The notes under the pieces were generated by a model. That model was not told the DNA's origin. It searched no databases and was given only the letters and a program-made list of their open reading frames with translations. A stretch of 64,000 nucleotides of DNA, from NCBI GenBank assembly GCA_029856045.1, contig JAHQWG010000053.1, positions 10,021-74,020 on the forward strand, read 5' to 3'. Below, one piece after another: positions 36,892 through 64,000 of this stretch. Each line of letters opens with the position of its first letter. Position 1 is the first letter of the stretch. The position numbers were made by a program, and so were the translations under genes. Source of the DNA: Promethearchaeia archaeon (GTDB lineage: Archaea; Asgardarchaeota; Lokiarchaeia; Sigyniarchaeales; SOKP01).

Positions 36892-36923
36892 TTTATAAAT
36901 TTAATGATTTAATATCATCATTA

Positions 36924-37935: not shown

Positions 37936-38004
37936 TTGATTTATTAGAATAAAAATAAGAAAAAAAAGAATATTTTTTGTTTTTTTAATTATTTTACTAT
38001 TCCA

Positions 38005-39386: not shown

Positions 39387-39523
39387 ATATGTCAGTAGAT
39401 CTACAATTTCATAAATATAAAATTTAATTCATAAATCTTTAAATATAGGTTCTAGAGAATTATAAATAATTACATAAATCTAAAATAAAATTTTAAAAAA
39501 TATTAAATAATAGAAAAAGAGGA

Positions 39524-41008: not shown

Positions 41009-41009
41009 A

Positions 41010-41141
41010 ATGTCTCAGGAAAAAGAAGAGGAAAAAATAAGCGATAAAGAAAAATTCATGATTGAACTTTTAATCATGACTGTAGTCGGCTTACTCGTTA
41101 TAGTCCCACTTATCTTATATGGATATCACTTTTTAATTTAA
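41010..41141 (+). CDS. 43-aa single-TM microprotein
   Basis: MSQEKEEEKISDKEKFMIELLIMTVVGLLVIVPLILYGYHFLI*; 1 bp after the upstream stop, G-rich GGGGGTGG SD-like run. Confidence 0.65.
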   Translation: MSQEKEEEKISDKEKFMIELLIMTVVGLLVIVPLILYGYHFLI

Positions 41142-41159
41142 TATGGAGGAATGTAAAAA

Positions 41160-41267
41160 ATGGATAAAAAAATGATTTGGAACATTACACGAATAGTTTA
41201 TTGGACATTAATATTCATTTTAGCACTCTACTTTGTCTTTCTACTAATAACAACGCTTTTTATGTAG
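41160..41267 (+). CDS. 35-aa single-TM microprotein
   Basis: MDKKMIWNITRIVYWTLIFILALYFVFLLITTLFM*; GGAGG SD upstream. Confidence 0.65.
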   Translation: MDKKMIWNITRIVYWTLIFILALYFVFLLITTLFM

Positions 41268-41481
41268 CAACGTCAAAAAAAATATTAGAATTCAGGAGTA
41301 TCATTAAAAATTTTAATATAAGTTATCTTTTTTTGTTTTCATTTTCTTTTTATTTTTTTTAAAATCTTTTTTAAAATAATTTTCATTAATTTAAGAAACT
41401 TTCAACTTTAAAAATTATATAAGATATAACCTTCTAATTGTTAAATAAAAAATAAAATATGAAATTGTTGAAGGGATTAAA

Positions 41482-42790: not shown

Positions 42791-43600
42791 TCAAGAATAA
42801 TTTAAAGATCTATTTTTTTGGTTTATTAAATCTTGAATTGTAATCTCAGGATGATGATATCTCTGTGTTTTTAAAGTTTATATACCGAATTGAATAGATT
42901 TTTCAGGGCAAAAATTAATACATGCTAAGCATTGCTGACATTTATGCTGCCATTGTGGTATTCCCTCTATTAGTATAATATTATTTACAGGACAAACCTT
43001 TTCACATATACCACACTTGTTGCAATTATCATCGGCGTAGAATGATTTATCACTTTCATACACTTCCTCTCGAAATTTATTATTAAATCTTTCACTCTTG
43101 CTTACATCTTTTTTAAAAATATCTTGATTGAGATTTTCTCTTTTATCCTTTAAAATTTCAGAGATAAATTCAACTTCTTTAATTGCTTTTTCGAAAAACT
43201 CTTTTTGACGCTCTTCTGAGTGAATATCATACGCAATAATATAATTATTGGGCATAGTGATATAAAATCCAGCACTAAGCGTTTTCGCTTTCGTTTTTAA
43301 AATCTTCTCTAACTGTTGTAAAGGCTGTTCGTTAATATCTCCAGCATACGTTATAACCGCAAAAAAATAATTAGATTTACTAAGATCTATTTTGTATATA
43401 AAATCATACACTATTTTAGGCAATCCAGAATAATATAAGGGAAAAATAAAACCTACTTTTTCACTCCTCGATGAAAGGTTTTCCATTTCCCAAACCTTTG
43501 CAATGGGTATAAGTTCACAGTCTTCTAACTTTTCGGCAAGGATTCTCGCAATCTTTAAAGAATTGCCCGTTCCAGTAAAAAAATAGATTGTCGTTTCCAT
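42791..43600 (-). pseudogene. EFR1-type flavodoxin-ferredoxin with an in-frame TAA near the C-terminus
   Basis: FTGTGNS, CNKCGICEKVCP, CQQCLACINFCP. After the TAA (42878-42880) the frame continues TLKTQRYHHPEI...* to 42791. Confidence 0.75.
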
Positions 43601-43736
43601 ATATATTTAAAATGTTCTCTTCTTTTAGAGTTTATTAAACTTTAATCTAATTTTTGGTAAGAATTCACTTCTTGTATAATATATGTGCATCAACTTACGA
43701 TTAGGCATTTTATAATCTTTTGGATTTATGATCGCT

Positions 43737-43967
43737 TTATTTATCATATTTTTCCCTCAAATGTTCTTCCGAGTTTAAGAAAATTTCACAATCACAAAAT
43801 CCGCCAGATTCTCTGCAATCTTCTAAAAACTCTTCTCGGTTCTCTTTGAGAATATTCATTTCTTCTAATATTATCTCTGCATTGGTTAAATCACGTCCAT
43901 TACATCCATTGATTTCTAATAATTCTTCTAATCGATTAAAAAATCTCTCTAAATCTTTTTTATTCAT
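43737..43967 (-). CDS. DUF2695-like small protein
   Basis: GC...GGFCDCEIFLN signature. Confidence 0.75.
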   Translation of the reverse strand: MNKKDLERFFNRLEELLEINGCNGRDLTNAEIILEEMNILKENREEFLEDCRESGGFCDCEIFLNSEEHLREKYDK

Positions 43968-44205
43968 TTGTAATTCTCCAATTAATTAAGAATTTTAGAA
44001 TAAATAAGTTATTCAACAATCTATTTATAAATTTTGTTGAAATTTAATTTCATACTCGATTATAATTTCACGATTAGGATTTAAGTTAACTTTAATAATG
44101 TAATCAAGTAACTTGGATATAATACCTCGAATTTTAATCTTGAAGAAAAATCATAAGGATTTCTTAAAGTTTTCCCTTTAAAGGTAGTTTTGTTAATTTT
44201 CAATA

Positions 44206-45195
44206 TTAGTTAGCTTTCTTTGGTTTTTTTCTGATTAATCTTACACCCAAACTTATTTCATCAGCCTTTTCCTCGGGACCTTTCCAGAATGGATATGTCT
44301 TTTTTAATATTTTTATTTTTTTTATTTTAAATATTAAAAGAGCAGTAAGATTAATTGCAAGGATATTTGACATTAAAAGAATAAAACTTCCAAAAGACAA
44401 AAGAGCATTTCCATAGATTAGAGCTACTCCAATATTAACGGCGGGAGGCATCAAAGATACCGCAATAGCAATACCAACTAAAGAAGATTCTATTCTACCC
44501 GTTATGGCGAATGCTACAGCTAACCCGGCGCCAATTGAAACGATTAAATCAAAAACCGTTGGAAAATTTCTATTCATCATTTCATGGGTTGCAGAGGGTG
44601 AATCATAAATAAGGAAAGCCAAACTTCCCAGGACAATTCCAGTCCCTATTGCAATAAGAATTCCAAAAAGTTGTCCAAAGATTCCTTTTTTAACTAAGAT
44701 ATAATTTTTGCTTATCATTCCATATGAAACGCCCAGTATAGGACCCATTAATGGAGATATGATCATTGCCCCTATAATAATCGCCGTAGAATTTAAAATA
44801 AGCCCTGCTCCTGCGATCAAAGCAGCTATGATGATAAAAATATAATAATTTAAATTTAATTCCATAACTTCTTTTAAAGTGGATTCGATTTCTTCTACAG
44901 ATATCCGGCTTGTAATTTCATCAGAAACATCACTTTCTTCTTCTTTCAACTCTGGAATTGTAACATCTAATTTTAATATATCTATAATACCAAATTCAGT
45001 TCCCACTCCAATTTCATTAAGAACTTCTAAAACTCTAGCAACTTTAATTTTAGTGCAACGTATAATGACTAAAGAATTACTTTTACCTTCCAATAATATC
45101 ATATTTTTAATGTTAAGTTTCTCATTTAAAGCTTTTATTAATGATTCAATACGGCTTTTTGGTTCATTAGGAAGACTTATCTGAATTTGACTCAT
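44206..45195 (-). CDS. TIGR00341/DUF389 membrane protein
   Basis: IIIGAMIISPLMGPI, GIAIAVSLMPP. Confidence 0.88.
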   Translation of the reverse strand: MSQIQISLPNEPKSRIESLIKALNEKLNIKNMILLEGKSNSLVIIRCTKIKVARVLEVLNEIGVGTEFGIIDILKLDVTIPELKEEESDVSDEITSRISVEEIESTLKEVMELNLNYYIFIIIAALIAGAGLILNSTAIIIGAMIISPLMGPILGVSYGMISKNYILVKKGIFGQLFGILIAIGTGIVLGSLAFLIYDSPSATHEMMNRNFPTVFDLIVSIGAGLAVAFAITGRIESSLVGIAIAVSLMPPAVNIGVALIYGNALLSFGSFILLMSNILAINLTALLIFKIKKIKILKKTYPFWKGPEEKADEISLGVRLIRKKPKKAN

Positions 45196-45446
45196 TTTAA
45201 ACTATCCTTGGATGTATTAGTACAATTAGATTTTTAACTAATAATAAAAATTCTATAATATTTATAATAATTTTCTTTTTAACTAAAATGTGAATAAAAC
45301 TTACGTTAATTTATTTAACCTACATTCCTTAAATAAATTCTTTTTATTTTCATTCTCTAATTATTATTGAATCTTTTTTAATCTATTCTGTAGCAATTTC
45401 ATAGAAAAACAGAAACTTTAAAGGTTTTCGAAAGAGATTAATAATC

Positions 45447-48056
45447 CTAAATGATGAATTCTCCTACTTTTTTAAAGTCAAAGACGTTATCTTTATTGTA
45501 ATCAACTTCTAAAATATCTCCTTCAATAAAATCACCTTCTAATAACTTCAAAGATAACGGATTTTGAATGTATGTTTGTATTGCTCTTTTCAACGGTCTT
45601 GCCCCGTAATCTGGATCGAATCCTTTTTCACTAAGAAATTCTTTTGCCTTATCCGTGAGCTTTAATTTAATTTTATTGTCAGATAATATTTTGTTTAAGT
45701 TTCTAAGTTGTATATCTACGATTTGTTTTATCTGATCTTTTTTTAAGAAGTTAAAAACTATTATATCATCAACGCGATTTAGAAATTCAGGCCTGAAATA
45801 ACTACTCAGTGTCTTCAAAATTAATTCTTTAGTTTCTTCTTTGCCCTTACCGCGGGATTCTAATATATATTGACTACCGATATTGCTAGTCATGATTATA
45901 ATTGTATTCCTAAAATCTACAGTCCTTCCATGACCATCTGTTAAACGCCCATCATCCATAATCTGCAATAATATGTTAAACACTTCTGGATGTGCTTTTT
46001 CGATTTCATCAAAGAGTATTACTGCATAAGGTCTTCGCCTTATAGCTTCTGTTAAATATCCACCTTCTTCATAACCAACATATCCTGGAGGTGCACCAAT
46101 CAATCTCGCTATGCTGTGTTTCTCCATAAATTCTGACATATCAATTCTTACCATAGCATTTTCATCGTCAAAAAGAAATTCCGCTAAAGCTTTAGCAGTC
46201 TCGGTTTTTCCGACTCCTGTTGGACCCATAAAAATGAAAGTGCCTATTGGTCTATTCGGATCTTGAATTCCTGCCCTTGCTCTCCTAATAGCATTTGAGA
46301 TTTTTACTAATGCCTCATCTTGTCCAATTACCCTTTGTTTTAATCGATTTTCCATTTTTAACAATTTTTCTCGTTCTCCCTCCAACATTCTTGAAACGGG
46401 AATACCAGTCCATTGAGAAACTACTTTTGCTATGTCTTCTTCGTCAACTTCTTGCTTTAACATTTTATTATTTTTTTGAATTTCATTCAATTCTGTGTTA
46501 TATTTTTCTAAATCTTTCTTCAATTGATTAAGTATACCATAAATTAATTCGGCGGCTTTCCCAAGATCTCCACGTTTTTCGGCTTTATCAGCTTCTATCT
46601 TTGTTTCTTCCATCTTTCTCTTAATTTCGCTAATTTTTACTATTTTTTCTTTTTCGTTTCTCCATTGAATCTGCATTTTATCGCTTTCTTCATGTAGATT
46701 ATGAAGCTCTTCGTCGATCTTTTTAAGTTTATCATTGGCAGATTTATCCTTTTCTCTTTTCAAAGCTTCTTTTTGGATTTCTAATTGGATAATTTTCCTC
46801 TCAATAGCATCAATTTCGGTTGGCATACTATCTATTTCTATCCTTAATCTAGAAGCAGCTTCATCTATAAGATCTATAGCTTTATCAGGTAAAAAGCGAT
46901 CTGTAATATATCTATGAGATAAAATAACGGCTGCAATTATTGCAGAATCTGTTATTCGAACTCCATGATGTATTTCATACTTTTCTTTTAAACCTCTTAG
47001 AATTGCTATAGAATCTTCTACAGATGGCTCAGCGATATAAATGGTTTGAAATCTACGAGTTAATGCAGCATCTTTCTCAATGTATTTACGATATTCATCT
47101 AATGTTGTAGCGCCAATACATCGCAATTCTCCTCTGGCTAACGCAGGTTTTAACATATTTGAAGCATCAATCGCTCCTTCAGCTGCACCGGCTCCTACTA
47201 AAGTGTGTAATTCATCAATAAATAAAATAAATTTTCCAGCACCTTCTTCAACTTCTTTTAAGAATGCCTTTAAACGATCTTCAAATTCACCACGATATTT
47301 CGCTCCGGCAATGAGGGCTCCTAAATCTAAAGATATAAGATCCTTTTCTTTTAAAGAATCTGGAACATCATTACTAGAAATCCGTTGAGCTAGACCTTCC
47401 ACAATAGCGGTTTTTCCAACACCAGCTTCTCCAATTAATACGGGATTGTTTTTTGTGCGTCTTGAAAGGATATGCATAACCCTTCTTATCTCGTCGTCTC
47501 TTCCAATCACGGGATCTAGTTTTCCTCTTCTTGCTAAATCCGTAAAATTGCGACTATATTTCAGAATTGCTTGATATTTTCCCTCAGGATCTTGGTCTGT
47601 TATAGTTCGATTACCTCTAATATTACTTAAGGCTTGAAGAATCCTGTCTTTAGTTATTCCATAATTTCTTAATATAGGATAAATTGACAGAGACTCGTCT
47701 GCTGCTATTGCAATTAGTAAATGTTCAGTACTTAGATATTGATCTCTTAAAAATCCTGCTTCCTTCCATGCAACATCGAATATTTTTTTAATTCTTGGTG
47801 AGATCCTGACATCTGTAACTCCAGGTCCTGTAACTTTTGGCAACTTATCCAATTCCGCTTTCAAATCGTTTAATAATGTGTAAAGATTTACTCCGAGTTT
47901 TTGAAAAAGTGGTGTAGCTATTCCATCTTGTTGCTCGATCAACGAAACTAACAAATGAGGGGGTTCTATTTCCTGATTTTCGTTATTTTGGGCTAGTGAT
48001 TGAGCAGCCATTAGACCCTCTTGAACTTTAATCGTGAATTTATCAAATTTCATCAT
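45447..48056 (-). CDS. clpB: ATP-dependent disaggregase ClpB
   Basis: Two AAA+ domains ([16 protein letters not shown]), GAKYRGEFE, long M-domain, GYVG; no ClpP-binding IGF loop. Confidence 0.97.
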
Positions 48057-48069
48057 CTTATAATTTTAC

Positions 48070-49080
48070 CTATAAACCTGTTTTTTGTAATTTTTCTAAT
48101 AAATCTTTTTGGTTCTTTTTTAATCTTTTAGGAACTTTAATTTTTATTCTAACCATTAGATTACCCTTTTGCTCTGAATTAATTTTATAAAAACCTTGAT
48201 TTTTTAATCGGAGGACTGTAGAATCTTCGGTTCCGGGAGGAATTGTAACGTTTAAAGTTTTTTCTGTACCAGGCACTTGAACATTACCTCCTAATACCGC
48301 TGTTGTAAATGGGATTTCTTGTTCTATATATACATCATCGTCTTTTCTTTCAAATTTACTATGCTTTTTAATTTTTACAATAATATATAAATCTCCAGGT
48401 TTACCTCCATTTTCTCCAGGCAAACCTTTCCCTTTAAGGCGTAACTTTTGATTGTCTTTAATTCCTCTAGGAATCTTTATAGTTAAAGTCTTATTTTGCC
48501 CCATTAGAGGATCTTTATATTGAATTTTTCGTTGAATGCCATTAAATGCATCCATAAAATCAATTTCGATGTTATATTTTAAATCTTCTCCTTCTCTTGG
48601 AATATTATAATCTGCCGATGTTGATCTAGATCTTGTACTACCCCCTCTATGGGAAAATACGTCAAATATATCTCCTAAATCGTTAAAAAAGTCAAATCCC
48701 CCAGTTTTACGACTTTTACTTGATTTTCCAAAAATATCGTTAAAATTATAACCTTCAGATGAACCAGTGGTTGAGTAATAAAAAGGTGTACCATCTGGTG
48801 ATTGATAAACTTGCCCATCTCTTCCAGAAACACCGCCCCATTGCTGATAGGTAGAGGGATCTCCTTCTACCACACCAAATTTGTCAAACATTTCTCTTTT
48901 TTTATCATCACTTAGAACACTATATGCCTCGTTAATTTCTTTAAATTTCTCTCCTGATTTAGGCTCGTCTGGATTTACATCAGGATGATATTTTCTTGCT
49001 AACTTGCGAAATACCCTCTTAATTTCTTCTTTTGAAGCACCTTTATCGATTCCTAATATTTTATAATAATCTTTTGCCAT
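48070..49080 (-). CDS. dnaJ: Class B J-domain protein (DnaJ/CbpA-like, no Zn finger)
   Basis: J domain with HPD, G/F region with DIF motifs, C-terminal domains; no CxxCxGxG repeats. Confidence 0.9.
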
Positions 49081-49112
49081 GTTTTACACTTTCGTTTTTA
49101 CTACAGTAAATT

Positions 49113-49140
49113 AAAAAAAAAAAAGAAAACAGCTAGTTTT
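49113..49140 (-). terminator. Intra-operon U-tract terminator/attenuator after dnaK
   Basis: Minus strand reads AAAACTAGCTGTTTTC followed by T12, right after the dnaK stop. Confidence 0.5.
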
Positions 49141-49144
49141 AAAC

Positions 49145-50977
49145 TTATTCAAACTCAGCATCTATAAAATCATCGTCTTGACCAGTAGCTTTTCGGTATT
49201 TTTCTTCTTCTATTTCGTCTTGTGTTTTACCTTGTTGTTGTTTATACATTCGAGCTGAAACTTCGTGTAAGGATTGTTGTAATTCTTCAATAGCACTTTT
49301 AATTCTATTTTCATCATCTGATTCCATAGCACCTCTAAGATCTGATATCTTTTGTAAAATTTTATCCTTTAAATCACCAATTATTTCTTCATTTTCTTTA
49401 AGTAATTTTTCAGTTTGATAGATCAGTGCTTCTCCTTGATTTTTAACTTCTACTAATTCTTTGAATCTTTTATCTTCTTCAGCATGACCCTCAGCTTCTC
49501 GAATTTTTTGCTCGATATCGTTATCAGACATCTTGGTAGACGCGGTAATTGTGATTGATTGACTTTTTCCAGTACCTTTGTCTTTAGCCGAAACATTTAA
49601 AATACCGTTTTGATCAATATCAAACTTCACCTCAATTTGAGGCACGCCTCTTGGTGCTGGTGGAATTCCAGTTAAATTAAATTTCCCTAAAGTAATGTTA
49701 TTCTTTGCTATAGGGCGCTCGCCTTGTAGGACATGAATTTCTACTGCCGGTTGATTATCTGCAGCTGTTGAGAATATTTCTTTTTTTTCCACCGGGATAG
49801 TGGTGTTTCTTTCAATTAATCTAGTGAAAACACCTCCTAAAGTTTCAACACCTAAAGACAATGGAGTTACATCTAATAAGAGTAAATCCTTAACTTCTCC
49901 TGTTAAAACGCCCCCTTGTATCGCAGCACCCATCGCAACGCACTCCATAGGATCAATGGCTCTCTCAGGTGGTTTACCTATTAAATCTTCGAATTTATGT
50001 TGGACGCTAGGCATTCTTGTAGGTCCACCAACTAAAATTACTTTACCAATTTCTCCTTTCTTTAATCCCGCATCTTTGAATGCTTTCAAAATGGGAGCAT
50101 CTAATCGTTTTAACACGGGATCGATTAATTGTTCTAATTTAGCCCTTGTAAATGTCATGGTTAGATGCTTTGGACCTTCATCTGTTGCAGTAATATATGG
50201 CAAATTAATATCAGTAGTTATTGAAGTAGATAATTCAATTTTTGCCTTTTCAGCAGCTTCTCGAACCCTTTGCATTGCCATCGAATCTTTTCTTAAATCA
50301 ATACCTTGTTCTTTTTGAAATTCTGAAACTATGTAATCAACAAGAAGGTTATCCATATCTGTCCCTCCTAATTGAGTGTCTCCTGATGTCGAAATAACTT
50401 CAAATACTTTGTTATCCATCTCCATTATTGTGACATCAAATGTACCACCGCCAAAATCTAACACTGCAATTTTTAAGCTAGCACCTTCTTTATCTAAACC
50501 ATATGCCATAGCTGCTGCAGTAGGTTCGTTGATTAATCGCCTTACGTTCAATCCAGCTATCCTACCAGCATCTTTTGTCGCTTGTCTTTGATTATCGTTA
50601 AAATATGCAGGAACAGTTATAATAGCGTCAGTGACCTTTTCGCCCAAATAAGCACTAGCATCATCTTTAATTTTTCTCAGTATCAAAGCAGAGATCTCTT
50701 GAGGGGTGTAATCTTTTCCATCAATTTTAACTTTATAAGAAGTTCCCATTTTCCTCTTTATTCCTGTAATCGTTCGATCTGGATTCGAAATTGCTTGTCT
50801 TCGAGCAGGTTCTCCAATTATTCTTTGTCCATCCTTCGTAAAAGCTACATAAGAAGGAAATGCTTTTCCTCCTAAACTAACTCCTTCAGCACTAGGTATA
50901 ATCGTTGGTTTTCCGCCAATTAATACAGCAGCTGCTGAGTTGGAAGTTCCTAAATCGATTCCTATTATTTTTCCCAT
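49145..50977 (-). CDS. dnaK: Hsp70 chaperone DnaK (archaeal/monoderm type)
   Basis: [33 protein letters not shown]; lacks the diderm-specific insert. Confidence 0.98.
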
Positions 50978-51020
50978 TCTATATCACTTCTTTTTATATA
51001 TTTTATTCTTATTTTAATTT

Positions 51021-51698
51021 TTATAGAATTTCGTTATTTGATTTTTTTGATATTTTGACCCGAGCGGGTCTTAAAACTTGTTTTTTATTGTTAAAATAAT
51101 AACCTTTATTCAATTCTTTTGTTATTATATCTTCAGGGATATCTTCATTATATTCGACCATTACAGCATCATGTTTATAAGGATCAAATTTTTCTCCTTC
51201 GCAATTCATTGGCTCAACACCCTCGTCAACAAGGAGTTTTTCAAAATTTTTAACTACCATTTCAAATCCCTTCATTAAAGATTCATCTGTTTCATAAGAC
51301 TTTGATAGTACTAATGTCCTTATTAAATCCTCGTAATGTTCGATTAATTTCTTCAAAATATTCTCCTTTACATAAAACTTATACCTTTCTTTTTCGCGTT
51401 CTGAGATTTTCTTGAAATTTTCAAAATCCGCTTTTACTCTTATCATAGAGTTAAGATATTCTTCAGACTGTTCTTTTAATTCTCTAATTTTTATTTCGTA
51501 TTTTCTCAATCCGTCGATTTCTCGATGTAATATTTCATTCTCTGATTTTAATTTTCCGTATTGTTCTGCTAGTAAATCAAATTTTTCTGCTTTTTCCTTA
51601 AGGGTTTTGTATTGTTCCTCCGATATTAAAGTATTATCAGAAGGATCTTTAAGAAATCTTCGATCATTTGGAAGTTTATTAAAATTATCTCCAAACAT
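51021..51698 (-). CDS. grpE: Nucleotide exchange factor GrpE
   Basis: ADFENFKK, FDPYKHDAV, KGY...VLRPARVKI. Confidence 0.95.
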   Translation of the reverse strand: MFGDNFNKLPNDRRFLKDPSDNTLISEEQYKTLKEKAEKFDLLAEQYGKLKSENEILHREIDGLRKYEIKIRELKEQSEEYLNSMIRVKADFENFKKISEREKERYKFYVKENILKKLIEHYEDLIRTLVLSKSYETDESLMKGFEMVVKNFEKLLVDEGVEPMNCEGEKFDPYKHDAVMVEYNEDIPEDIITKELNKGYYFNNKKQVLRPARVKISKKSNNEIL

Positions 51699-52304
51699 CC
51701 TAAATATCAGATCTCCCTTCTTTATTTATTAATTTCAATTTTATCTTCTTAATTTTCATTCTAAATTCTAAAGAATTTAAAAGTACTTTTTAGCTTTGCT
51801 AAAGATTAAAATGATTTTTTTATTAATAAAATTAATTGTACAAATTGGATTAGAATAAAAATTAGATGATTAATACTCATGAAAATAATATTGAGATAAA
51901 TACTTAGATTGTAGATTCCAAAACTGCAATGAAAAAGCTAATTAATATAGATATTGATAGAGTAATAATTGATAACTATTCACGAATTAAAGAATTATTA
52001 AATCGGTATAATTATTACAAATTTTCACTTAGGAGTATTTAAGAATCTAAAAAGGAATGCTTTATTATTCCAAAAAATACTATCTAATTTACATGTAAAA
52101 AAAGATTTACATTTATCAATTATAATTTATCTTCATAACTAATAATATTTTATAATAAGATATTTCAAAATATAGACATAATTTATTGGGTATTAAAAAT
52201 AAATCAATTATCTTTTAATGAAAATCAAATTTTTTAATTTTAATAATGATGCTGAACTATCCATAAAAGAGGTTCTATCTCTAAAAATAAAAGTAAATTG
52301 TAAT

Positions 52305-52751
52305 TTATAAATCAGAAGAACTAAAATTTCGATCTGAATGAACAAATTTAAAATATTCAAAATGACCCGAAATCTCTTCTTGAAAATCCTTTAATTCTTC
52401 ATTTTTCAACAGACTATTAAAAAAATTCACTACAGAATTATAAATTTTCTCAATAAATGTATCTGTCCGACTCATTTCATAAGAAAGTTCCAAAATAGCT
52501 TCATAATTTATTGTTAAGTCGATTTCCCTTCTAATCTCTTCAGTTAACTGTTCTTTAAGCTTTTTAATCCTCATATTAGTCCATATCGTTTCATAAACAA
52601 AATAATTTATAAATTGTATAAATTCTGTTAACGACGCAACCCCTAAAGCTATAGTAATATCACTGGTGACTATAAATGCTGTGAAAAAACCGATAAATAT
52701 TGTTATAACCCTATAAATTATACTTTTTATAAGACTCTCTTTCCATTCCAT
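52305..52751 (-). CDS. DUF2061-domain protein
   Basis: SLIKSIIYR...YFVYETIW N-terminal signature. Confidence 0.7.
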   Translation of the reverse strand: MEWKESLIKSIIYRVITIFIGFFTAFIVTSDITIALGVASLTEFIQFINYFVYETIWTNMRIKKLKEQLTEEIRREIDLTINYEAILELSYEMSRTDTFIEKIYNSVVNFFNSLLKNEELKDFQEEISGHFEYFKFVHSDRNFSSSDL

Positions 52752-52959
52752 CTTTAATTAACACCTTTTAAATTTTAATTTAATTCAATCCCTTTTTCCT
52801 GTGAGATTTTTCTTTCTCGCCATCGAGAATTTTTCTACCTATTTTTTAAAGGTTCAAAAGAGATATAATAATTATGGCTTAAAAACATTAAATGTATTTA
52901 GCGTCCGTATTCATTGATTTTAATTATTAAAAATTATCTCTGTTCCCCAAGAACTAGGA

Positions 52960-53070
52960 TTACATCTTTATTTTACTCAAAATATCATCGAGATAATTAA
53001 TATTTTCCTGTTTGAGTTCTTCCTTTAACGCATTTGCTAAAAAATATCTAAACGCCCATACTTCCAAATT
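52960..53070 (-). pseudogene. Duplicated 3' end of the NYN-domain gene
   Basis: NLEVWAFRYFLANALKEELKQENINYLDDILSKIKM*. 53015-53069 matches 57987-58041 at 53/55 nt. Confidence 0.9.
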
Positions 53071-53211
53071 CTATTAATAGCATCTTTATAAAAGACATTT
53101 TTTATAAAAAAGTAAAATATATATGCATACTTATAAATTTGTATTTTGCACCGAAATCTAATCTAATAAAAAAAAATACAAAATGAAATTTTATAGAGGT
53201 GGTAAATAAAA

Positions 53212-53526
53212 ATGATATTTATTTCATATTGGGAGTTAAATCCTGATTTTGATCCAGCAGATATGGCTAATATTGCACAAGAGCTTATTAGTAAAAAAAT
53301 CTACCCCCCTGAAGGAGTTAAGGAAATTGCATTTTATGTTAGTACCTCGGATAATTGGGGTATTAGTATAGATGAAGCCGACAGTGAAGAAGCTTTAGCA
53401 AGGAATACTGCTATGTGGAGAATTGCTAAACCTGGTATAATGAAATTTATTAAAACCACTCCTGCTATGGAAGTAGTCAAAATACTCCCAATATTAGTAA
53501 AATTGAAAAAACAAATAAAAGGTTAA
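53212..53526 (+). CDS. DUF3303-like small protein
   Basis: FISYW...PEGVK...WGISIDEADSEE...KTTPAM; GAGGTG SD. Confidence 0.65.
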   Translation: MIFISYWELNPDFDPADMANIAQELISKKIYPPEGVKEIAFYVSTSDNWGISIDEADSEEALARNTAMWRIAKPGIMKFIKTTPAMEVVKILPILVKLKKQIKG

Positions 53527-53637
53527 TATCAAAGAGACTTTGTTTCTGAAATCGAGGGTTATAAGTTAGATTTTGAAGTTTTCATGATAGCTGTTGAAGC
53601 ATTACCACTTGTTGGCCTTGAAATCCCCGAACCATAA
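53527..53637 (+). pseudogene. Start-less gene 3'-end remnant
   Basis: YQRDFVSEIEGYKLDFEVFMIAVEALPLVGLEIPEP*, protein-like composition; family not identified. Confidence 0.4.
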
Positions 53638-53775
53638 AAAACAAAAAAATAATATTTAAAGGAAATTATATTTCCATCTTTTTTTTTATCCTGAAGTGTT
53701 TTAATTCAGGTAGTTGAATTAGATTGATTAGATGTTAGAAAAAAGTTAATTACTAATCAGTACAACCATTATTCC

Positions 53776-53961
53776 TTAGCTTTTATGCATTTTCTGATTA
53801 ATTTCTTTAGGAATTACTCTCTTTGTAGCATCTGAAAAAACTAAGTTGTGATATTCTTTATCTATAAATTCTATGATTTTCTTTACTAATTCATTTTCAA
53901 ATTGTTTATTCAATATATGTTTAGCAATATATTGCTGAAAAAGATTTTCAAGAACACTCAT
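53776..53961 (-). CDS. Hypothetical short protein or fragment
   Basis: ORF only. Confidence 0.3.
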   Translation of the reverse strand: MSVLENLFQQYIAKHILNKQFENELVKKIIEFIDKEYHNLVFSDATKRVIPKEINQKMHKS

Positions 53962-54032
53962 TAAATATTCTTACATTGAATTTAATTTAATATTAATCAT
54001 TATATTCTAAAAATAATCTACTAAATTTACTC

Positions 54033-54108
54033 AATTATTTGCATTTTTCCTGAAATACTTTGAATTTATTTGGAAAATTTAGCGTTTATTTTGAGAATTC
54101 ACATCTTT
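54033..54108. repeat. 76-bp dispersed repeat, copy A (three ~20-bp units + TCACA)
   Basis: Ungapped match to 55597-55672 with 9 mismatches. Confidence 0.9.
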
Positions 54109-54204
54109 CCTAATAATCAAGTTCTTAGAACGCTTCATCATATTTCTCGACGAAGAAATTAAAAAACTTGAATAGGTATCCCACATATTATAAAACGGAT
54201 AACT

Positions 54205-54951
54205 ATGGAATTATGGAAATATTATGATGTGACGCACAAGGAGCACCTCGTGTGCAATCCTCTGAGCATCGAAAAATTAAACGAGCTTATCACCCTCTTG
54301 GCGTTAAAACCAGGTTCAAAAGTGTTAGAAATCGCAACCGGTAAAGGCGAATTTCTGATTCGGCTCGTTAAAAAGTACAATGTGTCCGCAATAGGCGTTG
54401 ATCTCTCTCCGTATCACCTCGATGATGCTAAAAGAAAAGCGAAAGAGCGTGTCCCGAATGCCGATTTAACACTAATTGAAATGGACGGCGCTAATTATAA
54501 GCCCGATATACCAGAGAGCTTCGACCTCACATGTTGTTTAGGTGCCAGTTGGATTTATAACGGGCATGAGGGCACGCTTAAATATTTGATGAGTCAAACC
54601 AAACGCAATGGGCTCGTCGTGGTGGGAGAACCGTTTTGGATCAGTAAGCCCCCAAAAGAGTATTTCGATCTTTCGGATATAAAATATGAGATGTTCAGCA
54701 AGCACGCTGGGAACGTGCAAATTGGAGATAGTCTTGGTCTAAAACTGCTTTACACTTTTGTGAGCACCCATGATGAGTGGGACAGATATCTTGGGCTACA
54801 ATGGTATGCAATGGACAAATATGCTCAAACACATCCAGAAGATCCCGACCTTCCCGAGCTCTTAGCCAAATTAAATAAAGAGAAAAACCTATATCTGAAG
54901 TGGGAGCGGGATGCGTTTGGGTGGGCGATTTACATATTTAGAAAAGCCTAA
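54205..54951 (+). CDS. Class I SAM-dependent methyltransferase
   Basis: VLEIATGKG, GVDLS, CCLGASW, VGEPFW; visibly GC-richer than its flanks. Confidence 0.9.
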   Translation: MELWKYYDVTHKEHLVCNPLSIEKLNELITLLALKPGSKVLEIATGKGEFLIRLVKKYNVSAIGVDLSPYHLDDAKRKAKERVPNADLTLIEMDGANYKPDIPESFDLTCCLGASWIYNGHEGTLKYLMSQTKRNGLVVVGEPFWISKPPKEYFDLSDIKYEMFSKHAGNVQIGDSLGLKLLYTFVSTHDEWDRYLGLQWYAMDKYAQTHPEDPDLPELLAKLNKEKNLYLKWERDAFGWAIYIFRKA

Positions 54952-55137
54952 ATAGTCTTATATAGAGGTTTTTAGTATTTTAGCAAGTCTTATTTTTTCT
55001 TTCTCGCATTTTTTCCATCAGCTGGGCGAGGTTTCTTGTAATTCATTGTATGACAGATTTAAGACGTATTCATACTGCCAGAATAACTCTATGGTTTTTT
55101 GGTCATGTTCAATCTGATTATTTCTATAATTAAAAAA

Positions 55138-55371
55138 TTATATATTGTAATAGGTACAACCGTAAAAGGTACTAGATCCTCCGTCAATATACATTTTATA
55201 CTTTGCATTATGATAATACTTAAGATCTTCTAAATGAGCAATTTTATTTGCCTCTTCTTCCTGAAAATTATATTCAATTAATTCTTTAATTTTGAAATAA
55301 AAATTATTTTGAGTTTTAACTGAAACTTGGGATTCTTCAAAATTTAGGATTTGTTCAATTAATTTTTGCAT
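55138..55371 (-). CDS. Hypothetical short protein or fragment
   Basis: ORF only. Confidence 0.3.
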   Translation of the reverse strand: MQKLIEQILNFEESQVSVKTQNNFYFKIKELIEYNFQEEEANKIAHLEDLKYYHNAKYKMYIDGGSSTFYGCTYYNI

Positions 55372-55508
55372 TTTATTTATAGATGGTTGTCTCTTTTTTA
55401 TCTTGATAATAGTTATCGATTTAAAAAAATAAATACTTCTTTACTCCTAATTTAAATTAATATAACTTAATTTTTCAAAATAATTCAAAAAAACTCACAA
55501 TTAAAGAA

Positions 55509-55560
55509 ATTTTACTTTATTTTTGAAAAATTTTATATTATTTTTGAAAACTCACAACAT
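55509..55560. repeat. Degenerate copy of the same repeat (two units + CTCACA)
   Basis: ATTTTACTTTATTTTTGAAAA / ATTTTATATTATTTTTGAAAA / CTCACA. Confidence 0.55.
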
Positions 55561-55596
55561 TATTGGAATGAGTAGTCAGTAAGAAAAAGTAGATTA

Positions 55597-55672
55597 AATT
55601 ATTTGCATTTTTTTTGAAAAATTTTGCATTTATTTGGAAAATTTAGCATTTATTTTGGAAATTCACAGCTTT
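55597..55672. repeat. 76-bp dispersed repeat, copy B; overlaps the msrB 3' end
   Basis: Units ATTTGCATTTTTTTTGAAAA / ATTTTGCATTTATTTGGAAA / ATTTAGCATTTATTTTGGAA, then ATTCACAGCTTT. Confidence 0.9.
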
Positions 55673-56056
55673 GGATTGAAAATCTAAGGAAATTGAATTA
55701 ATACAATATCGACAGCCCTTAGGGTTCGGTCCATCATCAAAAACATGTCCCAGATGCCCTCCACAATTACTACAGAGGACCTCAGTGCGGTTCATTCCAT
55801 AACTTGTATCTAATTTTTCTTCAAGATTAGCCTCATCATAAGGCTGTTTAAAGCTTGGCCACCCCGTTCCAGAATCAAATTTTTCTTCTGACAAGAATAA
55901 AGGCGCACCACAACCCGCACATTTATAAATACCCTTTCCATGATGGTTCCAATATTTTCCTGTGAATGCAGGCTCAGTCCCTTTCCCACGGAGAACGAGG
56001 TATTGTTCTTTTGTTAACTTCTCTTTCCATTTATCTTCAGATGATTTAGACACCAT
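55643..56056 (-). CDS. msrB: Peptide-methionine (R)-S-oxide reductase
   Basis: [43 protein letters not shown]. Confidence 0.97.
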
Positions 56057-56207
56057 ACAGTTAAGAAAAATTTATACTATTAAAATTATTACCTTATAGA
56101 CTTTAAAGGTCTTGGTGCTAATACCTTATAATAAAAATCTATAATTCATCACAAATTTATAAAAAATTAGGCTTAGGTTTAAATTTCAGAATTATTTAGT
56201 TAAAACC

Positions 56208-56687
56208 ATGGAAATTCACAGAGCTATTTTTGCAGCAGGTTGTTTCTGGGGTGTAGAGGCGAATTTTCGAAAAGTAGAGGGTGTCATATCTACTCGTGTG
56301 GGATATATCGGCGGTCAGTTTAGCAATCCTACATATAGGCAGGTATGTTCTCATAAAACTGGTCATGCGGAGGCTTTAGAAGTTATGTTTGATCCATCTA
56401 AAGTATCGTATAATGAGCTGTTAGATGTTTTTTGGGCAATTCATGACCCAACAACACTGAATCGTCAAGGACCTGATATTGGCACACAATATCGATCAGC
56501 GATTTTTTATCTTAATCCTGAACAAAAAGAAAAAGCGATGAGCTCAAAATCTAAGCTTGAAGCATCCAAACGCTTTAAAAATCCGATAGTTACAAAAATA
56601 GTACCCGCATCAGAATTCTGGGAAGCAGAAGAGTATCATCAGCAATATGTAGAAAAAAGTAATAACCAATATATGATGCATTTTTAG
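56208..56687 (+). CDS. msrA: Peptide-methionine (S)-S-oxide reductase
   Basis: GCFWG, TGHAE, HDPT...[19 protein letters not shown]. Confidence 0.97.
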
Positions 56688-56806
56688 CCATTTAGGTTGC
56701 TAGAGTAGACATCTGTTATAGCTGATTTTTTTTATTAAAAGCATAATATCATTTAAAACTTTGAAAAACTGAATATTATTAAGATTTGTTATAATCTATA
56801 ATATTT

Positions 56807-57781
56807 ATGAAACTCAAACATTATGACATATTTTATATAATTGGTTTAGCTCTTACTACCATTTTCATGATACTGGAATTGATTTTTCAATTTATTTCGT
56901 TGAATTTTACATTCTTAATTTTCTTTTGGACAATGAAACTTCTTTCTGGTTTTGGTTTGATAATAACCGTTGCAAATGGCATCTTATGGATTCTAAATCG
57001 ATTTACAGAGAAGTTCAGTAAAAAACATGTACAACTTCTGGTGATTTTTCAAGTAATAGTTCCAGGGATTTTAACTGGTTATGCTATTTATACTATTATT
57101 TCTTCTCTACCTCCTGTAACACCTTTAACAGGTCTAGACTATTGGGTTGATCTTCTTTTATTTCTCTATGGTATACTCTCTTTAATAATATCTTTATATA
57201 TTTTCCCTTTAATTAGAGAAGAATTTCAAGAAGCTGTTGAACAAGGACTTTTTACACGGATTAAAAGAGGCGGAAAAAAAGCTGGACGGAAGCTTAAAAA
57301 GAGATATTTTAACTGGAGAGGTAAATATGCGAAAGTTCAAATTCAAGATCAAATGTCCTTAGGAGAAGTATTAGAAATTTGGAGAAACCAATTTGCAGTG
57401 TATCTACTTATCCCTATTGCCATTGGATCACTCATTTTTACGCCAGTGGCTTTCATTTGTATTATCTTTTGGTTAAAAATATTTGTGTTTGATAAAGGTG
57501 AACCAAAGTTATATGAAAGAATTGCTTTAATTGCCTCTATGGTGTGGATTGCAGCAATAGTGTCACTGTCTTATGCCTTCGATCTCGTATTCTATACATC
57601 TATAAAACCATTGTTCTGGACTATTCAAATTTTCAACTTAGTTGGAATTCTTATCTCTAGTGCAATATTCATTTACCAATTTATAAAACTTAAAGGAATT
57701 ACCATTAAGAAAATTAGAGAAGAAATTAAAGACCGTAAAGCTGCTGATACTAAGGAAGCAGAAACATCGAACACAACGTAA
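56807..57781 (+). CDS. Multi-pass membrane protein
   Basis: About 7-8 hydrophobic segments with a basic central loop. Confidence 0.75.
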   Translation: MKLKHYDIFYIIGLALTTIFMILELIFQFISLNFTFLIFFWTMKLLSGFGLIITVANGILWILNRFTEKFSKKHVQLLVIFQVIVPGILTGYAIYTIISSLPPVTPLTGLDYWVDLLLFLYGILSLIISLYIFPLIREEFQEAVEQGLFTRIKRGGKKAGRKLKKRYFNWRGKYAKVQIQDQMSLGEVLEIWRNQFAVYLLIPIAIGSLIFTPVAFICIIFWLKIFVFDKGEPKLYERIALIASMVWIAAIVSLSYAFDLVFYTSIKPLFWTIQIFNLVGILISSAIFIYQFIKLKGITIKKIREEIKDRKAADTKEAETSNTT

Positions 57782-57922
57782 TTTTAATTTATCCTAATAT
57801 TTTTTTTTCCCATTCATTTATATTAGAAATATTATTTAGTCTTATCTGCCTTTAACTCCTTTTCTAACAATTTAATATCTCGGTCAATAATTATCGTTTT
57901 AATTTTTATACTATTTGTTAAG

Positions 57923-58429
57923 TTATAATTTTTTAATATTTATTTTGCTCAAGATATCATTAAGGTAAAAGATATTTTCTTGGCCAAGTTCTTCCTTTAA
58001 CGCATTTGCTAACGAATATCTAAACGCCCATACTTCCAAATGTTTATCCAATTCTTTTACTTTCTTCACCACAGGCACAAAATCGCCGTCCCCAGAGACC
58101 AACACCGCCGTATCATACGCATTTTCATACGCAAGAGAAATTATATCAATCGCGATCTTGATATCAACTTTCTTTTCAATGGCAGCATTAAACGTGATTT
58201 TATCAAAACTCGCTTTAATCACATACCCACTTCGATTGCTTAAATCCTCATACCACTTTTTTTTCTCTGGACTCATGGGATGCACAACACCTTCATATAA
58301 AAATATGCCCTGTAAATTTCGGCCGCGAGTTACGATGGTTTTCAGTTTTTCATAATCTGCTTTGATGTTATACTTCCTAAAGCCCTTGAAAATGTTGCTA
58401 TTATCTATAAAAATTATGATTCGGTCCAT
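57923..58429 (-). CDS. NYN-domain (LabA/DUF88) nuclease
   Basis: IFIDNSN, EKKVDIKIAID, LVSGDGDF. Confidence 0.92.
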   Translation of the reverse strand: MDRIIIFIDNSNIFKGFRKYNIKADYEKLKTIVTRGRNLQGIFLYEGVVHPMSPEKKKWYEDLSNRSGYVIKASFDKITFNAAIEKKVDIKIAIDIISLAYENAYDTAVLVSGDGDFVPVVKKVKELDKHLEVWAFRYSLANALKEELGQENIFYLNDILSKINIKKL

Positions 58430-63155: not shown

Positions 63156-63447
63156 GTGTTTTCATAATCTAGTTAATACTATTCAAAATGAAAATAATAG
63201 AATAAATATTTTTTATTATATGATTTTTCCTTTAGTGAAAATTTACCTATTTCCAAACATTCTACTCTATTCACTTTCAATTCTTCTAAAGAAATTCGTT
63301 ATTTTTAATTGTCTATTCCCCTTTTGGGATAATCTATCGAAATTATAATGGTCTAGAACAATTTTAACTCCTTATCTCTCTATAGAATATAATTAATAAA
63401 AAGGATTAGGAATAAAATAGAGGAAAAAAAAAAAGATAGAATCGACT

Positions 63448-63711
63448 ATGCTCAATAAGATCTTAGAATTAAAAAAAATTCAAGGAAAATCAAGGAAATT
63501 TATTGGTGCTTTAACAACTGAACTTATAAGAACTGAATTGCTCAAACAACGATTTAATGTGAGTAATAGTAATGTTTTTTTTGAAGGAATTCCTAATGAA
63601 CTTGATTTTTTTGAGATTAAATTCAGAGGAGCTTATGGAAAAAACAAAAAAATTCAATTAAAGAAATATTCAATAATATTAAAAGAAAAAATGAGAATAG
63701 AGAATGTATAA
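63448..63711 (+). CDS. Hypothetical protein, possibly a fragment
   Basis: ORF only. Confidence 0.35.
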   Translation: MLNKILELKKIQGKSRKFIGALTTELIRTELLKQRFNVSNSNVFFEGIPNELDFFEIKFRGAYGKNKKIQLKKYSIILKEKMRIENV

Positions 63712-64000
63712 TTAATACAATTTTTATAAAATTTTTTTTTGCTTCAAATTCGCTGGAGTAGGAATCGTGGCTTTGGATGCACTTGATAGAAAAATATTAA
63801 ATATAGGACAAATTGATTTTTTTAGTCCCTTATAAATAAAATATTAAATATTTTTTTTATCGCAATTATGGATATATTAATTTTTTAGGAATTAGATGTT
63901 AAAAAATTGAAGGAAAAAATTGGACATTTTTCAGGAAACAGAAGATTAGATACATCCACTTTTAAAGAGTCCGATCGTGATACTGAAACGAGTAGAGAGA

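Follow-up and report, generated by a model that had tools for sequence, protein, structure and literature searches.

An intact gene for an NYN nuclease in a lokiarchaeial genome is followed 5 kb downstream, in the same orientation, by a second copy of its last codons, which raises the question of whether the DNA between the two copies is a mobile island with the NYN gene as its attachment (att) site, as the initial annotation proposed, or arrived by another route. Asgard archaea hold many genes from bacteria and from one another, but little is known of the route by which these genes enter the chromosome. Integrated elements reported to date have tyrosine integrases and short att motifs (PMC11529989). 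The locus lies in the window, which is the whole stretch of 64,000 nt that was analysed; the genome under study (G000, 3.34 Mb) and the related loci and genomes with which it was compared (L- and G-numbers) are all metagenome assemblies.

The duplicated NYN end and the interval behind it

The features of the locus are as follows.

42853-52249, minus strand: FldFer4-DUF389-ClpB-DnaJ-DnaK-GrpE block
52250-52959, minus strand: DUF2061 segment (gene 52305-52751), directly after the tail
52960-53069, minus strand: orphan tail, a copy of the last 36 NYN codons and the stop
53070-53547, plus strand: DUF3303 block, gene 53212-53526 with its own upstream region
53548-54032, no strand assigned: segment with a 61-aa ORF (53776-53961, minus)
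54033-54108, minus strand: D2a, orphan copy (88%) of the msrB end, last ~10 codons and 46 nt
54122-54954, plus strand: single-gene methyltransferase unit, class-I methyltransferase gene 54205-54951, GC ~43%
55138-55371, minus strand: 77-aa ORF without family, inside the D2-bracketed insert
55597-55672, minus strand: D2b, 76-nt element of three ~21-nt units, overlapping the last msrB codons
55643-56687, no single strand: msrB (SelR, 55643-56056, minus) and msrA (PMSR, 56208-56687, plus)
56807-57781, plus strand: 324-aa protein without a Pfam match, a putative membrane protein in the initial annotation
57831-57986, minus strand: distal NYN codons (ending in QENIFYLNDILSKINIKKL and the stop) and downstream spacer
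57923-58429, minus strand: NYN (PF01936), intact, 168 aa, Pfam E 7.7e-25
57987-58041, minus strand: 55-nt core within NYN, codons ~130-147, EVWAFRYSLANALKEEL

A repeat search gives a direct repeat of 106 nt (52964-53069 versus 57936-58041; 85% identity; spacing 4972 nt), and a search of the 3.34-Mb genome with the tail finds only the tail itself and the NYN 3' end (E = 2.8e-28), so the repeat is far beyond chance and the duplication first seen by eye is real, with these as its sole two copies. In pairwise alignment, homology sets in abruptly at TTTGGAAG (53069/58041), the 55-nt core (53015-53069 and 57987-58041) has the two mismatches previously counted in it, and identity then drops toward the two stop codons, past which there is none; the two ORFs end in QENINYLDDILSKIKM and QENIFYLNDILSKINIKKL. 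The core is the best-conserved stretch across all NYN copies of the genus (91-100%) and is likely the crossover zone. Such a near-identical stretch could in principle produce chimeric joins in metagenome assemblies, but this worry is countered by the recurrence of the key junctions in the independent assemblies L044, L045, L046 and G004.

Over its full length the orphan tail shares 94.6% identity with the functional NYN end of L047 (94% in the distal half of the tail), versus 85% with the resident NYN end, which supports the earlier view that the short copy is a displaced NYN 3' end. The full NYN gene, for its part, is a mosaic, with an upstream context of the L047/L044 type and a last 64 nt plus spacer of the L066/G001 type. 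L047 shares the upstream iorA-iorB-MTase context at 94.7%; for the region upstream of NYN, identity to L047 is 94%, and L066 is unrelated there. Over the gene body both match at 88-92%, and over the core at 96-98%. At the distal end identity is 69% for L047 and 83% for L066, and across the downstream spacer 38% and 90%, respectively; together (57831-57986) these two segments match L066 and contig C265 of G001 at 83-91%, with L047 unrelated past the coding part. The resident gene is thus a chimera whose 5' part is conserved and whose 3' end, like the DNA downstream, has been exchanged.

Pfam upholds the initial cargo calls (DUF3303, msrB, msrA and class-I methyltransferase) as well as DUF2061 and NYN, and a Pfam scan of the interval likewise bears out that no recombinase is encoded between the repeats. 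What does not stand is 53070-57986 as one island with NYN as its dedicated att site: the interval is composite, with sub-blocks that have different nearest relatives. The extent held in common with L044 is only 55529-57930, with G004 only 53070-53547, and with other genera only the methyltransferase; the interval is not present or absent as a whole. The 4.9 kb are at least three nested acquisitions, not one element: the DUF3303 block, in common with G004; the msrAB block with the putative membrane protein gene, in common with L044, L066 and G001; and the methyltransferase unit, a single gene with a separate 76-nt repeat on either side.

In G004, L045 and L046 the DUF3303 block directly adjoins the NYN stop and has 91-93% identity to that of G000, in which its upstream region ends in AATAGAATT exactly at the tail boundary. 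Within 53548-54032 only 53667-53782 has a match (in L066), the remainder being unmatched in all loci compared. The methyltransferase segment is GC-richer, as had been remarked, at 41-45% versus about 25-33% around it, and the unit has 87-90% nucleotide identity to sequences in other genera, whereas a search of the four other genomes of its own genus did not find it; its protein is 89% identical in amino acids to that of G012, versus 63% for the neighbouring msrB, an indication that single-gene units move between genera. In L066, msrB ends without the D2b element. The msrAB block is 95-97% identical to L044, L066 and G001 C265 and ~78-80% to L058 and L077, and in L058 a remnant of this NYN end stands before it. 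L044 also has the 324-aa gene, which is missing from between NYN and msrA in G001 and L066 and adjoins NYN also in genus g2 (G005, 76% amino acid identity).

Beyond the tail, the position of DUF2061, a segment with no nucleotide match in G001 or G004, is occupied in L057 by a PNPOx gene. The FldFer4-to-GrpE block is 98.55% identical to L057, and FldFer4 is the distal anchor of the variable interval.

Alleles of the locus and similar scars elsewhere

Two things that the initial annotation suggested looking for, island-free alleles and duplicated NYN 3' ends around other cargo, both exist. In L057, where the island is absent, NYN and PNPOx lead straight into the GrpE-DnaK end of the chaperone block, and in the second copy of G004, NYN2 directly adjoins FldFer4; with L047, these are the insertion-free alleles among close relatives. 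L045 has the order NYN, DUF3303, tail, PNPOx, and G004 and L046 have NYN, DUF3303, core, an MNT-HepT toxin-antitoxin pair, tail, PNPOx, plus a 72-nt duplication, so alleles with zero, one and two inserts are seen stepwise, with DUF3303, MNT-HepT and PNPOx as the other cargo. Junction sequences are identical across this series. The number of orphan 3' ends downstream in the same orientation is one in G000, two in L045 and three in G004 and L046. The alleles that appear empty could equally be deletions between direct repeats.

Cargo is more alike between lineages than the adjoining NYN genes are (96.5-98% for MNT-HepT versus 89-92.5% for the adjacent NYN). Orphan NYN pieces start at at least six positions (profile positions 19, 52-58 and 72; codons 62, 70 and 121), some of them do not overlap one another, and 5' fragments also occur; no single core or crossover point is common to the insertions here. 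A shared boundary, 16 nt of non-NYN sequence included, is nevertheless seen at the MNT-HepT insert and the DUF3303 junction, and a conserved recombination site would fit this as well.

The layout of a gene, ordinary cargo and an orphan 3' end recurs at no fewer than eight other G000 genes, among them those for IDH, an M24 peptidase, RuBisCO and a cyclase; for the last two, relatives have empty sites. The same kind of repeat is found at msrB, both within the NYN interval and in G012. These additional genes and the many starting points of the orphans both speak against a dedicated att role of NYN. The count, for G000 alone, is ten scars in 3.3 Mb. No junction motif is shared among the ten loci, which are of unrelated sequence; in eight of the ten, homology ends with the stop codon. 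Divergence between the repeat copies is 10-17%, yet close relatives, 95-98% identical in the flanks, lack the duplication. The orphan is the native copy at NYN and the outlier, a diverged copy, at RuBisCO.

Probable and rival routes of insertion

On balance, the NYN copy is probably the scar of a homology-anchored insertion of related Lokiarchaeial DNA and not the att site of a mobile island; among the possibilities offered by the initial annotation (a non-autonomous element, a decayed one, or insertion by homologous recombination), the evidence favours the last. Related Lokiarchaeial DNA carrying the 3' portion of NYN with its neighbour genes would enter the cell, and the resident NYN would serve as the homology anchor. 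The most likely route would be a single crossover of a circularised fragment, presumably dependent on the general recombination machinery of the host (RadA). Campbell-type 'pop-in' of this kind, a procedure of archaeal and bacterial genetics, duplicates the homologous segment around the insert; 'pop-out' between the repeats restores the empty site, and the position of the crossover decides which copy holds donor sequence. The laboratory version, unlike the events envisaged here, uses engineered plasmids, and we know of no natural source of circularised chromosomal fragments in these archaea. Another route would be homology-facilitated illegitimate recombination, with one end anchored by homology and the other joined illegitimately. 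Either route would leave a complete NYN frame, new genes behind it, and a second, partial NYN 3' end further downstream. A single crossover at a variable position predicts both polarities, the native orphan at NYN and the outlier at RuBisCO. Repeated events, followed by deletions and exchanges between copies, could then give nested arrays, in which the msrAB block (with the 324-aa gene) would have brought the new distal end of NYN and the methyltransferase unit, bracketed by the msrB-end repeat, would be a further acquisition.

A tandem duplication of NYN, in which the downstream paralog lost its first ~129 codons and the genes in between arrived independently, is the strongest competitor, and we consider it unlikely. 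Full NYN copies lie in the same orientation 10.5 kb apart in G004, and G001 has three or more; long partial copies begin at codons 62-70 in L057, L054 and G009; and L073 and L075 carry DUF3303 divergently upstream of a full NYN, so the junction of DUF3303 and tail, where homology of the DUF3303 upstream region reaches exactly to the tail boundary, could stem from a 5'-truncated tandem duplicate. The diverged orphan at RuBisCO would also suit it. At NYN, however, the orphan is not closest to the resident gene's own 3' end; it is the tail that resembles the positional orthologue L047 at 94.6%, against 69% for the distal end of G000's own gene, a pattern that decay alone does not predict. Neither the 10-17% divergence of the copies, when close relatives have no duplication, nor the arrest of homology at the stop codon in most of the ten loci accords with this origin, and single-copy housekeeping genes share the layout, with empty sites in relatives.

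Serial insertion of circular cassettes at a true att site in the NYN 3' end by a recombinase acting in trans, integron-like or exploiting Xer (IMEX-like), appears improbable. The units are of cassette size (0.7-1.5 kb for DUF3303, MNT-HepT, PNPOx, DUF2061 and methyltransferase), toxin-antitoxin cargo is typical of cassette arrays, and the genome keeps one XerA-like recombinase (PF00589). Two different inserts have the same boundary, ATTAATAGAA followed by TTTGGAAG, but ATTAATAGAA is DUF3303 upstream sequence and a 72-nt duplication of the older DUF3303/tail junction explains the sharing. The fragments 19-138, 19-76, 72-131, 52-94 and 57-131 all cover profile positions 72-76, which nevertheless lie outside others (G001 C170 and G004 fragC, cut at ~60; L054, 81-137).

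Signals that such an enzyme would use are lacking. The tail, core and junction DNA fold no better than shuffles (z +0.5 to +1.0), with no significant hairpin of the attC type. A dif-like site has two 11-bp inverted arms and a 6-bp spacer (PMC2958812); the core contains no such 11-6-11 dyad, and the only matches (8-9 of 11) fall in the distal part in numbers expected by chance. There is no family-wide constraint on synonymous sites of NYN and, as noted, no junction motif common to the ten loci. Pfam scans find no site-specific recombinase in the interval or in its G004 and L044 neighbours, and an integron platform of IntI and attI is not seen either, since no PF00589 gene stands next to NYN in the genus-level loci. 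Across ~100 loci with NYN (~600 kb), a jackhmmer search seeded with the only PF00589 protein of G000, the gene for which is on another contig (C8), places no tyrosine recombinase next to NYN; its sole match is a candidate 6 kb from NYN in G012. No recombinase adjoins any array, and G000 has no resolvase (PF00239) gene.

A classical element that entered the NYN 3' end by means of its own integrase, and later lost this and most other genes, is very improbable: the intact NYN ORF and the displaced 3' end in direct orientation, with its 106-nt repeat, are the textbook signature, and archaeal elements do target gene 3' ends (review PMC8371274), but no integrase or other mobile-element gene is kept in the ~100 NYN loci, the genes of the interior are ordinary ones and differ in their nearest relatives, the core pattern has no exact counterpart among IMG/VR viral contigs, and many unrelated genes show the layout although the genome has only one tyrosine recombinase.

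Known systems and wider meaning

The proposed homology-anchored insertion at NYN has its closest parallel in the C-terminal displacement of bacterial Rhs, CDI and T6SS effector-immunity loci, for which homology-facilitated illegitimate recombination is the suggested mechanism (Jackson et al. 2009, cited in PMC5361080; Kirchberger et al. 2017, PMC5361080). On this reading of NYN, the conserved 5' part of a gene is in both cases the homologous anchor, a new 3' end is inserted with linked genes, the old 3' end is pushed downstream as an orphan, repetition yields strings of orphans, and no recombinase appears to be involved. NYN differs in being a small nuclease whose exchanged tail is 16-36 homologous codons and not a toxin domain; in place of immunity genes, the cargo consists of unrelated housekeeping or accessory genes; RuBisCO, IDH and a peptidase are examples of metabolic genes that bear scars too; and the host is an archaeon. 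Because toxin domain and immunity gene are both missing, the NYN locus works like these systems but falls outside that family.

With integrase islands at the 3' ends of tRNA or protein genes (archaeal tyrosine recombinases; review PMC8371274), the locus has in common direct repeats derived from the target, a restored gene and the possibility of tandem accretion; unlike them it lacks a fixed att core, its interior is incoherent, and neither mobile-element genes nor an integrase within or close to any of the arrays are present. Integron arrays are similar in having units of one or two genes behind a fixed point, the newest apparently nearest, and contents that differ between strains and include toxin-antitoxin cassettes. 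Integrons, however, have IntI and attC-type hairpins, neither of which is found here, where orientations are mixed, each unit comes with a promoter region and the repeats derive from resident coding sequence.

The NYN locus and its eight or more counterparts may be footprints of a route of gene gain other than integrase-mediated insertion, one in which the anchor gene is kept and an orphan end is left behind. If the pattern is general, orphan gene ends could mark and date gene gains in these genomes. A far bolder idea, which we regard as a long shot, is that Lokiarchaeia possess a dedicated, integrase-independent mode of gene capture that uses resident 3' ends as landing pads, with NYN as a hot spot, possibly with an unrecognised trans-acting factor; if true, dedicated capture would be a main Asgard route for foreign genes, including bacterial ones. 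A conceivable trans-acting candidate is the NYN nuclease itself, breaking DNA near the end of its own gene. The cassette-like arrays of this idea would hold even an Hsp70 operon, and at NYN the chaperone operon does lie inside a variable interval.

Organization of the duplicated NYN end

The 3' end of the NYN nuclease gene is present twice in the window, as a direct repeat of 106 nt with 85% identity (52964-53069 and 57936-58041, found by a repeat search of the window). Read on the gene strand, the homology starts abruptly at TTTGGAAG (53069/58041), is near-perfect over 55 nt (the core, 53015-53069 and 57987-58041), continues at ~75% to both stop codons, and is absent past the stops. The only other match of the partial copy (the tail) in the 3.34-Mb source genome, G000, is the NYN copy itself (E = 2.8e-28). 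The gene content listed in the initial annotation was confirmed by ORF, GC and Pfam scans.

Features in minus-strand order
Upstream of NYN: DUF362, iorA, iorB, methyltransferase
57923-58429 (-): intact NYN gene (PF01936)
Next: 324-aa protein with no Pfam match
Next: msrA
Next: msrB
Next: class-I methyltransferase, GC-richer
Next: DUF3303 protein
52960-53069 (-): tail
Next: DUF2061 protein
Downstream of DUF2061: GrpE-DnaK-DnaJ-ClpB

The genome of G004, of the same genus and in 10 contigs, is collinear with the window from 24000 to 42600 (81-96% identity) and loses collinearity thereafter; the window from 42600 to its end is a plasticity zone. The contig, C54, terminates where the window does. 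The sequence of the closely related metagenome locus L044 (97.8%) parts from that of G000 at a point 73 nt upstream of DUF362, where a HepT remnant stands in its place. The variable zone, upstream of DUF362 (window 63228-64000), thus extends past the window. All sequences are metagenome assemblies, and the key junctions were found again in independent assemblies.

Alleles in relatives and the mosaic NYN gene

A metagenome scan for NYN yielded 76 loci, which were pooled with the genome loci and arrange as a graded series.

Arrangements behind the NYN 3' end in relatives
L057: NYN, PNPOx, then GrpE-DnaK through a flavodoxin/ferredoxin gene (FldFer4); without island, tail or DUF2061
L045: NYN, DUF3303, tail, PNPOx, distal tail fragment
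L046 and G004: NYN, DUF3303, 55-nt core, MNT-HepT toxin-antitoxin pair, tail, PNPOx, distal fragment
L048 and L113: NYN, MNT-HepT
G004, second copy: NYN2, FldFer4, 70 nt apart
L066 and G001 (contig C265): NYN with KINIKKL-type end, msrA-msrB
L047: iorA-iorB-methyltransferase-NYN, G000-like (94.7%), with a KIKM-type end 94.6% identical to the G000 tail

In L045, L046 and G004, the tail stop codon and PNPOx are separated by the sequence found behind the full NYN gene in L057, which indicates that L057 represents the unoccupied (or cleanly deleted) form of the site. The chaperone block of L057 is 98.55% identical to window 52249-42853. Empty-site alleles and NYN-end duplications around other cargo, both proposed as checks in the initial annotation, thus exist in relatives; the particular empty site that it had envisaged, with NYN running straight into DUF2061, was not found among them. 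DUF2061 is itself variable, and PNPOx occupies its place in L057.

The NYN gene of G000 is a mosaic of sequences resembling two of these loci.

Identity of G000 NYN segments to L047 and L066
Upstream segment: 94% to L047; 51% to L066
Gene body: 88-92% to L047; 89-90% to L066
Core: 96% to L047; 98% to L066
Distal end: 69% to L047; 83% to L066
Downstream spacer: 38% to L047; 90% to L066

Over its distal half the tail matches L047 at 94%, and the KIKM-type NYN end sits 5 kb downstream of the working NYN gene in G000. Taken together, the segment identities and the match of the tail to L047 indicate that the working gene exchanged its last 64 nt and all DNA behind them. The earlier proposal that the tail is a displaced 3' end therefore stands insofar as the tail is the L047-type end and the resident end was exchanged; the single island tied to it does not.

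Several further features of these loci were observed. Positions 3920-4611 of L048 and 1-692 of L044, contigs from different samples, are 100% identical over 692 nt behind MNT-HepT; this stretch lies behind NYN in one contig and ahead of DUF362-iorAB-NYN in the other, and the iorA-NYN part common to both is 98.8% identical. The identity would fit an assembly join, very recent movement of the unit, or its arrangement in tandem or as a circle. The G004 stretch from NYN1 to DUF362 (12000-18100 of L023, G004:C4:203000-222000) contains genes of toxin-antitoxin type (MazF/PemK, and UPF0175, which matches PIN weakly), a winged-helix regulator, a 189-aa iorA fragment and, directly behind DUF362, a distal NYN-tail fragment; HepT-MNT is on the opposite side of NYN1. 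This stretch looks like an accretion zone. The GrpE-DnaK-DnaJ-ClpB operon of G000 (window 45447-51698) is itself part of the variable interval, which reaches from NYN to the flavodoxin/ferredoxin gene. In G001, G002 and G004, of the same genus, its dnaJ-dnaK part has matches of only 70-71% nucleotide identity, elsewhere in their genomes, and ClpB has no match; the operon is 76% identical to that of G005, of another genus. It looks xenologous and not vertically inherited.

Nested acquisitions between the tail and NYN

The initial annotation had interpreted 53070-57986 as one inserted island, a reading that fails because the nearest relative differs sub-block by sub-block. DUF3303 with its own upstream region (53070-53547) is 91-93% identical to G004, L045 and L046, where this block is 112 nt from the NYN stop codon. 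The segment 55529-57930 is 97% identical to L044, with complete divergence on both sides there; the other L044 genes encode unknowns and a TPR protein. The msrAB genes are 95-96% identical to those of L066 and G001, both of which lack the 324-aa gene, and the latter adjoins NYN in another genus too (G005).

The methyltransferase forms a single-gene unit (54122-54954), from ~50-85 nt upstream of the gene through its stop codon, with 87-90% nucleotide identity to five genomes of other genera (L132-L136); a protein search of four other genomes of the same genus did not find it. Its nearest named homologues are Lokiarchaeota MAG proteins, which makes G000 most likely a Lokiarchaeion. Beyond Lokiarchaeota they are followed by Anaerolineales proteins (55-60%), a distribution that suggests an old bacterial origin and then recent spread among Lokiarchaeial genera. 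In G012, of another genus, a full msrB is followed by a D2-like element, the methyltransferase and an orphan msrB piece (aa 52-129); msrB is 63% and the methyltransferase 89% identical to G000 at the amino acid level.

Two copies of the 76-nt repeat D2 (54033-54108 and 55597-55672), which consists of three ~21-nt units and begins TGTGAA, flank the methyltransferase together with a 77-aa ORF in G000. The first copy overlaps the end of msrB and supplies its last ~10 codons in G000, L044 and G001, with slightly different junctions; msrB of L066, L058 and L077 ends without D2. From the differing relatives and the bracketing by D2, a minimum of three acquisitions are nested in the interval, and two bear their own signature of a duplicated gene end. 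These two full copies of D2 are the only ones in G000 and have no inverted partner, so that D2 was rejected both as a dispersed repeat and as the end of a transposon; a terminator, a binding-site array and a recombination-prone sequence are candidates for its nature.

Similar scars in the genome and their possible origin

Self-BLAST of G000 for local direct repeats (at least 80% identity, 50-350 nt, 0.3-20 kb apart) gave as the commonest class, outside internal gene repeats, an intact gene followed by 1-3 genes and then by an orphan copy of its own 3' end. Eight further loci of this kind (L123-L130) were counted in this single genome.

Further scars in G000 (contig: anchor; cargo; orphan)
C8: 352-aa gene; beta-propeller protein; 89 nt, 91%
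C11: M24 peptidase; alpha/beta hydrolase; 113 nt, 84%
C25: CinA; unknown protein; 56 nt, 86%
C27: cyclase; ABC transporter pair, plus nested insert; 301 nt, 98%
C49: MFS transporter; two ATP-grasp genes; 300 nt, 88%
C49: RuBisCO large subunit; glycosyltransferase, methyltransferase, unknown; 87 nt, 83%
C51: isocitrate/isopropylmalate dehydrogenase; two unknowns; 153 nt, 91%
C51: 797-aa gene; unknown; 191 nt, 86%

Together with NYN and msrB these make ten loci, in eight of which the homology ends at the stop codon; no shared motif was seen at their left boundaries or junctions. None of the cargo proteins scanned at the eight loci matched a recombinase family; the scan covered their genes with the exception of a small ORF in the cargo and of the 797-aa anchor. 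The cyclase site is empty in G001, G002 and G004, the RuBisCO site is empty in G001 and G002 with an insertion common to G000 and G004, and the whole dehydrogenase block including the orphan is missing in relatives. The RuBisCO gene end of relatives is 98.75% identical to the intact end of G000 and 84.5% to the orphan, so that the polarity of this scar is the reverse of that of NYN.

A general homology-driven process can explain all ten loci. A circularised fragment carrying part of a gene 3' end and neighbouring DNA would enter by one crossover, producing a gene with recipient 5' and donor 3' parts, the cargo, an orphan composed of a donor piece and the recipient end, and the old flank; recombination between the repeats would restore the empty site. 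Under this model the orphan would begin, on its left, wherever the donor fragment happened to end, which would make the boundaries variable; homology would stop at the first difference between donor and recipient DNA behind the gene, hence mostly at the stop codon; and the crossover position would set whether the orphan is native or foreign, allowing both polarities. NYN is probably a hot spot, because it is multi-copy in the genus and no other stretch is as well conserved among the copies as the core (91-100%).

An alternative route would be homology-facilitated illegitimate recombination, which has been proposed for Rhs and T6SS arrays (PMC5361080) and explains the polarity at NYN just as well. 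For the DUF3303/tail junction, tandem duplication of NYN followed by decay is a real rival: in L073 and L075, DUF3303 lies divergently upstream of a full NYN gene and the upstream homology reaches exactly to the junction. This rival is a poorer fit to the NYN mosaic and the L047 match. An attachment site specific to NYN is insufficient as an explanation, since the ten loci have unrelated sequences.

Components of a site-specific system were also sought. The Asgard integrated elements described in PMC11529989 rely on tyrosine integrases, and an attachment motif of 11 bp is given for one of them. G000 has one PF00589 gene (XerA-like, on contig C8) and no resolvase genes; with this protein as seed, jackhmmer on all fetched loci found no tyrosine recombinase beside NYN in ~100 NYN-bearing loci, the sole match being 6 kb from NYN in G012. 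The core pattern had no exact match in IMG/VR that would indicate an attP-bearing virus or plasmid, and attC-like folding of the tail, core and junctions was not above shuffles. A dif-type site is an 11-6-11 dyad (PMC2958812); none is present in the core, and dyad counts are at chance level. Nucleotide-level constraint on the core was likewise rejected: among 61 NYN genes its third-position entropy is 0.84-0.97 versus an average of ~1.05-1.1, the N-terminus is similar, and conservation of its synonymous sites is not unusual.

Among described phenomena, the closest is the C-terminal displacement that leaves orphan 3' ends at Rhs, CDI and T6SS loci of bacteria, and the mechanism class is familiar from known systems. 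Literature searches gave papers on such displacement for these bacterial toxin loci only. As far as found, the Lokiarchaeia setting, the ordinary anchor genes, the stacking of small units and the genome-wide recurrence seem to be new.

The DUF3303 and MNT-HepT junctions have the same boundary, ATTAATAGAA (DUF3303 upstream sequence) running into TTTGGAAG, because 72 nt of the older junction were copied when MNT-HepT was inserted. Orphan NYN fragments, located with a nucleotide profile of NYN ends, span profile positions 19-138, 19-76, 72-131, 52-94, 57-131, 58-131 and 81-137; a common crossover point was discarded, as their intersection is empty when all are counted. Longer orphan pieces begin at codons 62, 70 and 121, and there are NYN copies truncated after position ~60. 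Orphan 5' fragments comprising the first 20-69 codons occur in L111, L112, L115, L118 and L025 (7937-8021), that of L115 abutting an inverted internal NYN piece. With the orphan 3' ends, these 5' fragments indicate that in this clade both ends of NYN have been subject to breakage and copying.
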